Below are positions 28,899 to 35,250 of a DNA stretch of 42,587 bases, one piece after another. Both the position numbers and the translations under genes were made by a program. The notes under the pieces are model-generated. The model ran no database searches. It was not told the origin of the DNA and saw only the letters and a list, made by a program, of their open reading frames with translations. Every line of letters starts with the position of its first letter. The first letter of the stretch is position 1. Source of the stretch: a candidate division WWE3 bacterium (GTDB lineage Bacteria > Patescibacteriota > WWE3 > UBA101185 > UBA10185); assembly GCA_016182565.1 (NCBI GenBank), contig JACPGI010000002.1, forward strand, positions 1-42,587, written 5' to 3'.

Positions 28899-29732
28899 GT
28901 GATTTGGTCAACAACAAAAAAAATTCAGGTTAATAATTTATTGGTCCCATATAAATTTGTGATACTTATGTCATTTGCACTCTTAGTACTTTTTTTTAGC
29001 ATCTCTGTAGTGCAGGGGAATGCTTTTGCCCAAGAATTCACTACAGGTATTTCTGAATCAATTGCTATTACAGCGGATCGAGAAGTGGTGTCCGGGGATA
29101 TTATTAGTGTCAGAGACAAAAAATTTGGTTTAAGTGCTGTAGATTATGATACTTCAATGTATGGGGTTATTACCGACAATCCAGCAATTATAATGGACGA
29201 TAGTGCTTTGGTGGGGCGAAAATATGTCACATCTTCTGGAGAGGCTTTTGTAAGAGTTACCACCAAGAATGGCCCTATTTCTAAAGGGGACTTTATAACA
29301 TCATCCGACAATCCCGGCATTGGACAGAAAGCCATAAAAAGTGGGCAAATTGTTGGGATGGCTTTGCAGGAGTTTACTTCAACTGATCCAAACGAAGTAA
29401 AAGAGATACTTGTCAGTATTGATATAAGGCCAAATTTGGTGCAGGACAACATTAAAGTTAATTTGCTTGAGGCGCTAAGATCTGGTGCCCAAGCACCATT
29501 TCTAACTCCTCTGACATCTCTTCGCTATATTTTGGCAGCTTTAGTAACTGCCGGATCATTTATACTTGGGTTTTCATCTTTTGGTAAAACTTCTGGGAGT
29601 GGGGTTGAGGCACTTGGTAGAAACCCCCTTGCAAGTAAAGAGATCCAACATAGTATAGTTTTAAATATGATCCTAACAGCAATAATAATGCTTTCTGGTT
29701 TAGCATTAGCTTACTTCATATTGGTGTTGTAA
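28899..29732 (+). CDS. Signal peptide, extracellular beta domain and ATP synthase c-subunit-like hairpin lacking the carboxylate
   Basis: AFA|Q cleavage-like site; C-terminal [13 protein letters not shown] hairpin; occupies the atpE position before b-delta-alpha; GTG 28899 lies 7 nt after TATAAT (ORF track start is TTG 28869). Confidence 0.75.
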
Positions 29733-29760
29733 TTTTTAATAGGTATGGGAAAATGTTTAC

Positions 29761-30507
29761 ATGCACTTACTGCCCCCCGATTCGGTGTTTAATTTAACAA
29801 TTCTTTTTATATTCATAATCTTTTTGTTAGGTTTTGCAGTTTTACTAGCTTCGATCTATGGTTTTTTATCAAAATGGCTCAGACTTTTAAAAGAAGATGA
29901 AATTTCAGGTGCCACAGCAATAAAGCAGAATTCGTATAAACAGGCTGCTGAGATACTTGATAAGGCGAGAAAAGAATCGCTAAAAATAATTGCTGAAACA
30001 AATATGAGATCTCGTGATGTTCTTGGCCTAATTGACAATTTGGCTAAAGAGTCTAAAAGAAGCCTTAACCTTTCACTTGATACATTGGCAGCAAAACACG
30101 AGGAAGCACTCCAAAAAACTTCAAATGAACTTCTTTCCAACTACCAAGACATTATTGAAAAACAAAAACAAGAGAGCATTTCTGTTTTGGATAAAGTTTC
30201 TTCTAATATTGAAAAAAATGCGGATTTACAGGTAGATGAGTTTGAGGATGCTCTTGAAAGAAAAACAATAGAGGTGGAGAAGTTGGTTGAAGATAAGTTA
30301 GATGCTTCCTATAAGAAGGTTGAAGGTGAAATTGCAGTATTTAGGGATGCACAGCTCAAAAAAGCTACTGAGTCAATCTATGACATACTTCACCAGGTTT
30401 CTATAAAAGTTTTTGGGAAAGTTCTAAGTGTGGAGGATCACGAGGATATTGTTATGCAAGCTTTAAACGACGCTAAGAACGGTAATTTTTTTAAACCTAC
30501 TAATTAA
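29761..30507 (+). CDS. atpF: F-type ATPase subunit b-like, elongated (248 aa)
   Basis: N-terminal TM, long coiled coil, b-like C-terminus (VSIKVFGKVLSVEDHEDIV); operon position. Confidence 0.72.
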   Translation: MHLLPPDSVFNLTILFIFIIFLLGFAVLLASIYGFLSKWLRLLKEDEISGATAIKQNSYKQAAEILDKARKESLKIIAETNMRSRDVLGLIDNLAKESKRSLNLSLDTLAAKHEEALQKTSNELLSNYQDIIEKQKQESISVLDKVSSNIEKNADLQVDEFEDALERKTIEVEKLVEDKLDASYKKVEGEIAVFRDAQLKKATESIYDILHQVSIKVFGKVLSVEDHEDIVMQALNDAKNGNFFKPTN

Positions 30508-30513
30508 AATCGC

Positions 30514-31023
30514 ATGAACTTAGCTATTAAAATTCAAAACACCCAAAATTTGCAGAGATTAAAGATGCTTGCTTCAGGTTTAAAAAGTAAGTTAGTGGGG
30601 GACAGTTTAGCAAGAAATAAAGTCACCCTTGAAAAAAATCTCGGTGAATTTTTCCCTATTTTTGAAGATTTTGTTTCTTCCGACGCGTTGAATACACCAA
30701 AGGATCTAAATCAACCTAGTATTTCTGCTATTAATAAGCTATACGCAAGTAATAGCCTGGCCATAATAGATAATTTTCTGTTATACCTTAATTCTATTAG
30801 TGTATTAGATTTAACGCTGGCTTTTAATCCCACTCCCAAGTTTTTACAGGAGGTACTGTTTTGGCTTAACAAGAACGTATCAAATAATATAGTTTTAAAG
30901 GTAAATTACCAGGAAGATATAGTAGCTGGCGCACTTATTACTTACAATGGCAAATATGGAGATTTTTCAACGAGGAACAAATTAGATGCCTTATTTAATC
31001 ACACTCAGGAACTAAAGATATGA
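30514..31023 (+). CDS. atpH: F-type ATPase subunit delta-like
   Basis: C-terminal EDIVAGALITYNGKYGDFS resembles the delta motif (LIGG..I..GD..ID.S); operon position. Confidence 0.75.
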   Translation: MNLAIKIQNTQNLQRLKMLASGLKSKLVGDSLARNKVTLEKNLGEFFPIFEDFVSSDALNTPKDLNQPSISAINKLYASNSLAIIDNFLLYLNSISVLDLTLAFNPTPKFLQEVLFWLNKNVSNNIVLKVNYQEDIVAGALITYNGKYGDFSTRNKLDALFNHTQELKI

Positions 31024-32586: not shown

Positions 32587-33456
32587 ATGGCGGCAACAAA
32601 GAACATATTGGAAGAAATTCAAAACTTAAAAAATGTTAGAAACATGGTATTAACTTACGAAGAGATTGCCGCCACAAGGATGCAACGTGTTAAAACCTCG
32701 GTTCTTATTAACCGCGAATTCTTAGCCAGTCTTTATTCTATATATCAGCATGTTAAGTACTCCTACGATAGGGAAGTTAAAGTGCCAAAGTATTTTAAAA
32801 AGACGCTATCTTCGAAGATAATCCCAAGAAACGGCAAGACTGTATCTGTTTTTCTATCTTCGAATACAGGCCTTTATGGGGATATTATAAAAGACACCTT
32901 TGACCTTTTTGTAAAATCAATTCAAGATAAAAAGACGGATATTGTGGTTGTGGGTAGGGTGGGGCAGAGGTTATTTGACCACGTAAAGAAAGCTCTAAAT
33001 ATGACAAACTATCAGTATTTTGAGCTATCAGACAGTTCATCAAACCCAGAGGATTTCATTGATATTATTTCCTATGTTGTAGATTATGAGCAGGTGATTG
33101 TTTATCACGGTCAATTTCAAAGTATTTTATCCCAAATACCCAAGGAGGAGTACTTAACAGGAGATCTCCCAAAATCCGAACTTAAATTTGTGGAGAATGC
33201 CCACTATATATTTGAGCCTTCGTTGGAAAAGATACTCAGTTTCTTTGAATCCGAAATTATGGCTTCAATTTTTGAGCATAGTTTACATGAGTCAAGTCTT
33301 AGCAAATACGCATCTAGAATGATAAATTTGGATCACGCGGTCTCTAACATAAGCGAAAAACTTAAACGAGCAAAATTTATTGAACAAAGTTCGCGACATA
33401 GGGTAGTAAATAAAAAGCAAGCCGAGCTCCTTTCTGGTATGTCACTTTGGGGCTAG
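32587..33456 (+). CDS. atpG: F1 subunit gamma
   Basis: N- and C-terminal helices, SSNTGLYG, SKYASRMINLDHA, KKQAELL; position between alpha and beta. Confidence 0.9.
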   Translation: MAATKNILEEIQNLKNVRNMVLTYEEIAATRMQRVKTSVLINREFLASLYSIYQHVKYSYDREVKVPKYFKKTLSSKIIPRNGKTVSVFLSSNTGLYGDIIKDTFDLFVKSIQDKKTDIVVVGRVGQRLFDHVKKALNMTNYQYFELSDSSSNPEDFIDIISYVVDYEQVIVYHGQFQSILSQIPKEEYLTGDLPKSELKFVENAHYIFEPSLEKILSFFESEIMASIFEHSLHESSLSKYASRMINLDHAVSNISEKLKRAKFIEQSSRHRVVNKKQAELLSGMSLWG

Positions 33457-33498
33457 TAATGTGGGCAAATTAGATGTCAAAATAGGGAAATAGAACTT

Positions 33499-34959
33499 AT
33501 GGAAAATTACGGCATAATAAAATCAATAAAAGGACACATTGTAGAGGTCGAATTTTATACTGGACTCAAGCCTAAAGTTAATGATGTTTTATATTTGGAA
33601 TCAGATAAAAACTGCAGGCTGCAAGCGTATAAGTCTTCCGATAGTGATAGTTTCTACTGTGTAGCATTATCTCCGATTCGAGGCTATTACAGAGGGGCTA
33701 AGGTGCTAAATACTGGTGAAGCTCTTTCTATACCCGTGGGAGAGGGAGTATTAGGTAGGGTTATGGATATATTTGGCGACCCAAAGGATGGTAAAGGCTC
33801 GATGCCTTCAAATCGAAGATCAATTTTTCAAGATACACCTGATTATTCGTCTATCTCCTCTCAGCAGCAAGTTTTAGAAACCGGCATAAAAGTGATCGAT
33901 TTTTTTGCACCCATAGTAAAAGGAGGAAAAGTGGGCTTATTTGGCGGTTCGGGTGTTGGAAAAACAATTTTATTAACTGAAATTTTACATAATATTGTGA
34001 ATCTTGATCCACTCAAAAATGTATCCGTATTTGCAGGAGTGGGGGAAAGAAGTAGAGAAGGACAGGAGCTTTACGATGAGTTGGATAGAACAAAGGTGCT
34101 AAACTCAGTGGCTCTTATATTTGGAACTATGGGTGATAGTCCATCGGTGAGGTTTTTAACAGGCATTGCCGGTGTGACAATTGCCGAAGAGTTTAGAGAC
34201 AATCTAGGAAAAAATGTTCTTTTTTTTGTTGACAATATGTATAGATTTGCTCAGGCTGGTAACGAGCTCTCTATGCTTATGAATACAATCCCATCCGAGG
34301 ACGGTTATCAGGCGACATTGGTCTCTGAGATGGCAAATATGCATGAACGTCTTGTCTCAAGGGGAGAAAATTCCATAACGACTGTAGAAGCAATCTATGT
34401 TCCAGCTGATGATATTTTAGATCAAGGTGTACAGGCTATATACGATTACTTAGACTCAGGCATTGTACTTTCACGAGATGTTTATAGGGAAGGGCGACTA
34501 CCTGCGGTGGATATTTTATCTTCAGGATCATCAGCTCTTAGTCCAGAAACTGTTGATTTTATACATTATGCAGCTTCGCTTGAAGCTAAAACCCTTTTAA
34601 AAAAAGCCGAATCTTTAGATAGAATAGTTTCTCTTGTGGGAGAATCCGAACTGTCGGCAGAAGATAAACTGTATTACCAAAGGGCCAGAAAGCTTAGAAA
34701 TTTTATGACTCAGAATTTTTTTGTTGCTGAAAAACAAACTGGAAGACCGGGTGTATACGTATCCTTAAAAGATACTGTAAAGGGGGTTCAGGCTATTTTG
34801 CGCGGCGATTTTGATGAGGTGTCTGAGGACCACTTTCTATTTATAGGTAGTGTAGATGAGGCATTACCTTTAAAAAATGTTGTAACCAAAGTATTTACAG
34901 GTTCATTTCAGAAGCATCGGGATGAGGCTAATCTAGTAACAAAAAAGCCCAAAAAATAG
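33499..34959 (+). CDS. atpD: F1 subunit beta
   Basis: [20 protein letters not shown] (catalytic Glu), [28 protein letters not shown]. Confidence 0.96.
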
Positions 34960-34974
34960 AAGGTCTAATAACCT

Positions 34975-35250
34975 ATGATTCCTAACATTCTTAGAGAGAC
35001 TAATAAAAATATATCTGTAGTAATAAAAAGTCGAAAAAGAACTTATTATGAAGGGCAAGCGTTATCCTTAAGCTCAGTAAATGAAAGTGGGCCTTTTGAT
35101 GTTTTGCCATCTCATGCTAATTTTATTACTACAATTAGGGACTATATAAAGCTAATTATCGATGAAAACAATGCCCAAGATTTTGCAATTAAAGAGGGAG
35201 TATTACGGGCATATGAGGATGAGGTAAGTGTGTATTTAACTGTAGCATAG
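34975..35250 (+). CDS. atpC: F1 subunit epsilon, N-terminal beta-sandwich only
   Basis: GPFDVLPSHANFIT motif; ends without the C-terminal helical hairpin. Confidence 0.85.
   Translation: MIPNILRETNKNISVVIKSRKRTYYEGQALSLSSVNESGPFDVLPSHANFITTIRDYIKLIIDENNAQDFAIKEGVLRAYEDEVSVYLTVA

Follow-up and report, generated by a model that had tools for sequence, protein, structure and literature searches.

The 42.6-kb stretch of WWE3 DNA analysed here (the window) carries a seven-gene operon, X–b–delta–alpha–gamma–beta–epsilon, that encodes an F-type ATPase in which a membrane protein with an extracellular domain, here called X, takes the place of subunit c and lacks its ion-binding carboxylate. The operon spans positions 28869–35250, with all genes on the plus strand and gaps of no more than 42 nucleotides (nt) in the list of open reading frames (ORFs). 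The gene order, first proposed in an initial annotation made from the letters of the sequence, was confirmed by the ORF list together with Pfam and NCBIfam matches and family profiles of b and delta. A scan of the operon for promoters and terminators returned sites no more frequent than in shuffled sequence. The genes are as follows:

28869–29732, plus strand: X, a predicted c-subunit-derived membrane protein (maximal ORF, 287 amino acids (aa))
29761–30507, plus strand: subunit b, with one N-terminal transmembrane (TM) helix and a long coiled coil, from its family profile
30514–31023, plus strand: subunit delta of the OSCP family (single sequence against OSCP, E = 2e-3; family profile)
31020–32582, plus strand: F1 alpha (Pfam and NCBIfam), with Walker A GDRKTGKT and arginine finger SVTRVG
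32587–33456, plus strand: F1 gamma (PF00231, E = 3e-25)
33499–34959, plus strand: F1 beta (TIGR01039, 472 bits), with GGSGVGKT, GVGERSRE and the Walker B Asp
34975–35250, plus strand: epsilon, beta-sandwich domain only, 91 aa (PF02823)

By its sequence, the F1 part (alpha3beta3, gamma and a truncated epsilon) is catalytically intact. Alpha matches PF00006 (E = 2e-69) and beta exceeds the curated cutoff of TIGR01039. Alignment places the Walker A motif and the arginine finger in alpha, and the Walker A motif, the catalytic Glu (within GVGERSRE) and the Walker B Asp in beta, in agreement with the catalytic residues initially listed; among related loci, 68 of the 71 beta and 73 of the 74 alpha sequences retain the catalytic motifs. 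Epsilon is without its C-terminal helical domain throughout the family (median 88 aa, range 79–123; 68 loci). Because this domain inhibits hydrolysis in canonical enzymes, its loss fits an enzyme dedicated to hydrolysis. The single b sequence has no Pfam match; a profile of 28 orthologues, however, matches ATP synthase b at both ends (9o19_X, E = 1.3e-8; 9itj_U, E = 3e-6), covering the membrane-embedded N-terminal end and the delta-binding C-terminal end of a protein about 80 aa longer than solved or canonical b subunits. The delta family profile reaches OSCP at E = 4e-7 and Pseudomonas aeruginosa delta at E = 5.6e-7. These profile matches mark both proteins as genuine homologues of the ATP synthase stalk subunits. 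Two other identities were rejected. The alternate F1Fo class (N-ATPase) was ruled out by scores of 378 against a cutoff of 750 (TIGR03324) and 415 against 752 (TIGR03305), and the ATPase of type III secretion systems (T3SS) by curated scores, alpha and beta scoring against the FliI/SctN models as distant relatives.

The start of X is ambiguous, with candidates at 28869 (TTG), 28899 (GTG, in frame), 28941 (TTG) and 28968 (ATG); the last of these is the start in the database gene call, which gives 254 aa. This 254-aa form was modelled with AlphaFold2 (AF2) from a 20-sequence alignment, with an overall predicted local distance difference test score (pLDDT) of 82.6, and the model runs from a hydrophobic N-terminal helix (residues 3–15) through a beta domain and a flexible linker to a helical hairpin. 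Its parts are listed below, with residues after the loop Arg numbered R+1 onwards:

28968–29030, plus strand: predicted signal peptide ending ...GNAFA↓Q, with the presumptive A-x-A↓Q cleavage site kept across the family
29049–29423, plus strand: predicted extracellular beta-barrel domain (AF2, pLDDT >90), a relative of phage cement, preneck-appendage and tail-fibre anchor domains
29424–29507, plus strand: linker and conserved juxtamembrane segment (NL..AL....[12 protein letters not shown]), of low pLDDT with a short helix
29508–29729, plus strand: c-like TM–loop–TM hairpin, with GRNP at 29616–29627, Asn R+15 at 29664–29666 and Ala R+20 at 29679–29681

X lies in the c slot of the operon, directly before b (atpF), and the c-type hairpin that the initial annotation had read in it is borne out by both profile and fold. 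Profiles of the X family against the PDB gave significant matches to c subunits only (E = 1.4e-3 at full length, 1.5e-4 for the hairpin alone), and the modelled hairpin (residues 181–253) superposes on c subunits in Foldseek with a root-mean-square deviation (rmsd) of 1.2–1.8 Å and a target-normalised template-modelling score (TMt) of 0.75–0.88. The profile alignment pairs the ion-binding Glu of subunit c (Glu62) with the Ala at R+20 of X; counted from the ORF, the positions of GRNP and of this Ala are exactly those first reported. X has no Pfam match at E ≤ 1, the curated c-subunit models (PF00137 and COG0636) remain below threshold, and NCBIfam PRK07159 is hit at E = 0.0074 with 16 bits against a cutoff of 122. 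Because these curated models are not reached, X is, as judged from profile and predicted structure, a remote and derived homologue of subunit c and not a member by curated criteria. The GRNP loop and the wider ALGRNPLA are invariant in the family, which is consistent with a retained contact to the central stalk, and the juxtamembrane residues P181, R186 and Y187 are likewise invariant in the family alignment.

The claim that the ion-binding carboxylate is replaced by Ala within a second TM helix (TM2) free of acidic residues in its core holds for the window and for the family. In the window, the sole acidic residue after the loop is a Glu at R+7, at the cytoplasmic start of the helix and outside the membrane core. 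None of 81 X genes from 80 species genomes has an Asp or Glu between R+11 and the C-terminus, R+20 being F, A, I, V, G, L or S; none of 79 X loci from metagenomes has one in the membrane core of TM2; and among 143 representatives of clusters at 50% identity, a single one (P0248, Glu at R+15) has a membrane carboxylate. At R+15 the residue is polar throughout (N 118, H 18, S 6 and E 1 in the representatives; N 65, H 13 and T 1 in the metagenome loci). TM2 also conserves Thr R+19 (about 80%), Gly R+26 and Tyr R+31, and the C-terminus lies exactly 36 residues past the loop Arg. N15, T19, G26 and A30 share one face of the helix, and R+15 would be either a packing residue or a non-canonical site.

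The second of these options leads to a reading in which the complex is still an ion-translocating ATPase or synthase, with a neutral ion site around R+15 and Thr R+19 and an unrecognised stator in place of subunit a. The constant polarity of R+15 and the high conservation of Thr R+19 speak for it, as does the retention of the b/delta stalk, the canonical role of which is to hold F1 against the membrane stator. On the other hand, all c and K rings known so far depend on one carboxylate per functional site, Asn is unable to carry a proton, and the four conserved positions on one helix face are arranged as a packing stripe would be. The search for subunit a also counts against this reading. None of the large ORFs of the window matches ATP-synt_A or ATP-synt_C, and the subunit-a Arg motif occurs in no frame of the window, so that the initial claim that atpB is missing from both operon and window stands. 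A hidden small c gene inside the operon was ruled out, there being no hydrophobic ORF of at least 50 aa and no intergenic room. Related loci were read to 10 kb or less on each side of X, and crude motif scans of the roughly 2 Mb that flank 160 X loci detected no canonical a or c; in particular, no a-like gene was found in the operon or in these flanks. A closed WWE3 genome (RAAC2) has been reported without recognisable a, b or c subunits and with an H+/Na+ membrane pyrophosphatase (Kantor 2013, PMC3812714). We therefore regard continued ion translocation as improbable.

The same searches bear on whether X is an accessory paralogue, with a canonical atpB–atpE pair elsewhere in the genome that forms Fo with this F1 and makes an ordinary ATP synthase. 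The sequence covered, 42.6 kb here and at most 20 kb per related genome, leaves room for such genes, and operons can split, as illustrated by three loci (L037, L063 and L079) at which an X–b pair stands without nearby F1 genes. Against this, about 115 loci have X precisely where c would be, directly ahead of b, the roughly 2 Mb of flanks yielded no canonical c or a, the RAAC2 paper found no recognisable a or c, and surveys of the candidate phyla radiation (CPR) report absent canonical subunits: 30% of sampled CPR were without genes for the canonical complex (Mahendrarajah 2023, PMC10656485), although ProAD put incomplete CPR complexes down to genome incompleteness (PMC11738941). An accessory role for X thus appears quite improbable to us.

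The operon is widespread. Homologues of X comprise 1049 matches at 90% clustering and 633 clusters at 50% identity, and they occur in 239 GTDB species genomes from WWE3 (including the closed RAAC2 genome, locus L012) and from Levy-, Woese-, Ames- and Shapirobacteria (Microgenomates). The survey of the operon and of carboxylate loss across the CPR, which had been suggested as a check, found the order X–b–delta–alpha–gamma–beta–epsilon at about 115 loci, of which about 70 are among 80 genome loci and about 45 come from metagenomes, with the loss family-wide. The median identity of X to the window protein is 46%, compared with 29–40% for gamma, epsilon, b and delta; its hairpin is about 70% identical between classes and the position of its C-terminus is exactly fixed. 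Taken together, these data show that the operon is under strong purifying selection across two CPR classes. That it might instead be an ATP synthase in decay, left without function in a streamlined symbiont, is suggested by the reduced genomes of the CPR, by surveys that read incomplete complexes as loss and by the dispensability of ATP synthase in a cultured Saccharibacterium. We strongly disfavour this idea and give it hardly any credence, given that all seven ORFs are intact, that the catalytic motifs persist in nearly all alpha and beta sequences (73/74 and 68/71), and that the hairpin is so similar across classes, with its fixed C-terminus, in a family of 633 clusters.

The N-terminal part of X is, as the initial annotation had it, a predicted signal peptide followed by an external domain, with cleavage expected at the A-x-A↓Q site and a confident AF2 beta-barrel after it. 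Foldseek against the PDB pairs the ectodomain with decoration proteins of phage capsids (E = 1e-4). Against predicted phage proteins (BFVD), it reaches E = 8e-12, with an rmsd of 2.3–2.9 Å and 20–27% identity, and the matches include preneck-appendage barrels, the N-terminal domains of tropism determinants and tail-fibre-like proteins. At the sequence level, PF23982 (XM1_gp53_minor_capsid) matches 13 of 20 X family members (best E = 7.7e-6), the X of the window itself not being among them at E ≤ 1.

At most loci, the gene of a large protein, often of more than 2000 aa (ectodomain 1000–3000+ aa), divergently adjoins X upstream. This giant neighbour, a linked surface protein that was not part of the initial annotation, has a helix-turn-helix (HTH) domain of the MerR/HTH_17 type at its N-terminus (E as low as 2e-13), a single TM helix and an ectodomain rich in S, T, N and G that carries beta-helix, FG-GAP and tailspike intramolecular-chaperone (IMC) domains. 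Examples, each upstream of X, are:

L080, 5564–9757, minus strand: giant neighbour
L022, 2103–9728, minus strand: giant neighbour
L078, 2628–8762, minus strand: giant neighbour

With a strict motif, 85 of 85 ORFs with an N-terminal HTH in 2.02 Mb were the divergent neighbour of X and none lay elsewhere. A homologue of the X ectodomain lies inside eight of the giant neighbours (E = 1e-22 to 3e-7), seven of them full-length ORFs. It sits about 300–400 aa before the C-terminus, and in L078 it overlaps a Peptidase_G2 IMC match. The copies are:

L152, residues 2130–2238: X-ectodomain module in the giant neighbour
L022, residues 2124–2243: the same module
L078, residues 1630–1747: the same module
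L120, residues 2116–2245: the same module
L165, L051 and L123: the same module

The module was not detected in the giant neighbours of L080, L072, L066, L042, L006 and L061. Between the giant gene and X, the inverted repeat GACATTT-N(6–10)-AAATGTC recurs in L080, L147, L159 and L165, and also in L010; this dyad may be an operator for the MerR-type HTH. The window has no copy close to X; its one match (7722–7746) is unrelated. In the window, dprA and comM lie between X and the nearest HTH–TM protein, 2.8 kb upstream:

25404–26081, minus strand: MerR-type HTH, one TM helix and a short ectodomain, 225 aa (MerR_1, E = 1.6e-5); a possible partner, with a putative link to X

About 20% of the cluster representatives are a long form of X of 390–590 aa (for example P0194, P0199, P0216 and P0243), which heads the same operon (L083, L086 and L090–L102). 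Its AF2 model starts with a winged-helix HTH, predicted with confidence, and continues through about 140 disordered residues and an additional TM helix into the barrel and the hairpin. An HTH neighbour stands beside short-form X at no fewer than 75 of 101 loci (≥75/101), whereas none of 16 loci with HTH-fused long X has one. The two distributions are complementary, the HTH-fused long X taking the place of the giant neighbour.

The operon itself also varies. A lineage represented by L056 (4345–9014), L072 (5628–10184) and L141 (3417–8207) has a five-gene version, X–alpha–gamma–beta–epsilon, without b and delta, in which alpha begins with MIH(S/G)FEF and its N-terminal segment is absent; these operons resemble the F1-like clusters of Mycoplasma. 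At L037 (9968–11371), L063 (9767–11369) and L079 (2933–4456), X and b occur as a pair without F1 genes within 10 kb downstream, and the flanks hold glycogen-metabolism genes and a conserved membrane protein of 219–233 aa. In L075 (10778–12499) and L080 (10704–12425), X and b are separated by a 573-aa gene whose N-terminal sequence suggests a cofactor-independent phosphoglycerate mutase.

These neighbours and variants raise the alternative that an oligomer of X is a static platform for surface fibres and that F1 is an assembly, export or regulatory ATPase for the giant neighbour, much as the related FliH–FliI–FliJ complex works for the export gate of T3SS and flagella. X is tightly linked to giant, single-pass surface proteins with the N-terminus inside, and shares the phage anchor module with them; variants without b and delta exist; the HTH arms of the long form are incompatible with free rotation; and the distant relation of alpha and beta to the FliI/SctN models points the same way. 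However, gamma, epsilon and the RNP loop are retained as in rotary enzymes, beta is a bona fide atpD product over the curated cutoff, the lumens of canonical c rings are not known to serve as protein conduits, and the ordinary TM anchors of the giants could be inserted by Sec/YidC. We regard a static platform as unlikely.

The reading we favour, with confidence about evenly divided, is that of a derived F-type ATPase that has given up ion transport in its membrane sector and acts as an actuator at the cell surface. Because the rotor is without an ion-binding acid and no subunit a lies nearby, ATP is probably spent on mechanical work at the surface. X would oligomerise into a c-ring-like body with a crown of barrels outside the membrane, and the enzyme would work solely as an ATPase. 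Torque or torsional strain from gamma and epsilon would be passed through the X ring to the cell exterior, where the ring would act on, or together with, the giant HTH-anchored, tailspike-like protein; the energy of ATP would thereby reach the surface of an organism lacking a respiratory chain. The movement could be continuous rotation or a limited twist, continuous rotation being doubtful in the long-form and stalk-less lineages. Of the ATP-driven ring of X without ion coupling that the initial annotation proposed, the ion-uncoupled machine is thus retained as the best-fitting reading; rotation of the X ring is conjectural, and both the variants and the constantly polar R+15 complicate it. 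A more specific version is tentative and, as a whole, somewhat doubtful: the F-type motor of WWE3 and Microgenomates might be a transmembrane actuator whose carboxylate-free ring turns or twists giant tailspike-like fibres docked through the shared barrel and the HTH–TM anchor, giving these epibiont-like cells an energised organelle for attachment, motility or host piercing, and would then be a second independent conversion after that in Mycoplasma.

The putative X ring and its contact with gamma and epsilon are suggested by loop conservation. Several observations weigh against the surface actuator. Without subunit a, nothing known keeps the b anchor beside such a ring. The lineage without b and delta (L056, L072 and L141) has no obvious stator. 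In models of long-form X, every protomer has an additional TM helix and a disordered cytoplasmic arm with an HTH, both hard to reconcile with free rotation past b2; because such arms would sweep into the b stalk, free rotation is doubtful for this form. Because R+15 is always polar (N, H, S, T or E), a non-canonical ligand or ion site in TM2 is conceivable. The MerR-type HTH, the divergent orientation and the recurring dyad would also fit a plain relation of regulator and operon, and the giant neighbour could, on these data, be a regulator tethered to the membrane. Background synteny was gauged with rplA, which lies downstream of epsilon at 36 of 101 loci, so that part of the synteny is background. 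Finally, the DNA of the window is of groundwater origin, and a search of sequencing runs returned only groundwater DNA runs containing the locus and no RNA runs.

If the surface-actuator reading is true, the 'incomplete' or 'minimal' ATP synthases of the CPR would be explained as rebuilt, not broken, and reconstructions that give these organisms ATP synthesis coupled to the proton motive force, or ATP-driven proton extrusion, would be wrong. The system would offer a natural experiment on an F1 motor with a c-type ring without ion coupling, and a testable candidate for how ultra-small, respiration-free bacteria power processes beyond the membrane. The genetic link would also provide the first functional partner for the abundant and unexplained giant surface proteins of the CPR.

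Elsewhere in the window, natural-competence genes flank the operon, with dprA and comM upstream (26144–28763) and comEA and a split comEC downstream (35981–38616); the two comEC pieces are one ORF with the Competence domain and one metallo-beta-lactamase ORF. Positions 35338–35652 encode an ArsR-type regulator. A 732-aa membrane protein with Wzy_C (O-antigen-ligase-like) and tetratricopeptide repeat (TPR) domains is encoded at 23105–25303 on the minus strand, and ORFs whose N-terminal sequences resemble that of this protein by eye, in an unscored comparison, occur upstream of X in L003, L075, L139 and L141. At 10553–11439 on the plus strand lies a 295-aa ORF with an N-terminal membrane segment. 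This higher-G+C stretch (10.5–11.4 kb) has no Pfam or Rfam match and is protein-coding, not an RNA gene; its G+C content is about 50% in a genome of 35%, and it is likely to be foreign DNA.

Compared with the canonical bacterial F1Fo (atpIBEFHAGDC), the CPR operon has homologous alpha, beta, gamma, delta, epsilon and b subunits in identical order, beta reaches the atpD equivalog cutoff, and X shares the c slot, the hairpin fold and the R-N/Q-P loop. It differs in having no subunit a or AtpI, a longer b and an epsilon without its C-terminal domain, and X departs from canonical c in a 6-residue deletion in helix 1, a signal peptide, a 125-aa external beta-barrel and the absence of the carboxylate. 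Hairpins without a carboxylate can still fit into rings, as in c1 of the Acetobacterium woodii c2/3–c1 ring (4bem) and in the duplicated c/K subunits of V/A-type enzymes, and the PDB matches of the X profile include both c1 and c2 of A. woodii. In these rings, however, the other hairpins retain the carboxylate and subunit a is present, whereas in the X family each copy is without the carboxylate. The ectodomain of X is like the cement, minor-capsid and preneck-appendage or tail-fibre anchor barrels of phages (PF23982 XM1_gp53, PF09956 and the phi29-type appendage barrel) in fold, and weakly so in sequence. The module also occurs in the giant neighbours, beside tailspike chaperone domains. In X, by contrast, it is joined to a hairpin in the membrane part of an ATPase, encoded in a cellular genome with no phage genes nearby.

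The precedent invoked at the outset, that Mycoplasma F1-like ATPases serve gliding and antibody cleavage, is real: the literature describes F1-like X0 ATPases of which Type 2 (G1-ATPase) serves gliding and Type 3 serves MIB–MIP antibody cleavage (PMC3369863, PMC11864180 and PMC12994834). They are the nearest analogues in function: as in the CPR, these are F1-derived ATPases without a recognisable ion-translocating Fo that are genetically tied to extracellular machinery. One protein in each of their clusters has the topology of X (PMC12994834), combining a signal peptide and a large ectodomain with a C-terminal pair of TM helices, a likeness by described architecture, and the Mycoplasma alpha is without its N-terminal helix, as are the CPR variants without b and delta. 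Unlike the CPR operon, which has b and delta, the Mycoplasma clusters have neither of these subunits but encode a 12-TM protein and a small cytoplasmic one, both absent from the CPR operon. Membership in Types 2 and 3 was ruled out, with MSC_0619/0618 or MMOB1660/1670 scores of 266 against a cutoff of 520 and 383 against 570, and canonical atpA and atpD scoring higher.

The 'minimal' or incomplete ATP synthases reported for CPR and DPANN genomes (PMC3812714, PMC10656485 and PMC11738941) are probably the very operons headed by X. Literature searches found a description of the system only in Kantor 2013, in one sentence without further analysis; the RAAC2 operon noted there is locus L012, and its carboxylate loss, ectodomain and lack of subunit a were not recognised. 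The papers on incomplete synthases invoke unrecognisable subunits, loss or incompleteness, and describe no c-derived protein, carboxylate loss, ectodomain or surface protein. The X operon is thus a widespread variant of the F-type ATPase, to which we add the giant surface neighbour, the ectodomain module that the two share and the replacement of that neighbour by an HTH-fused X.

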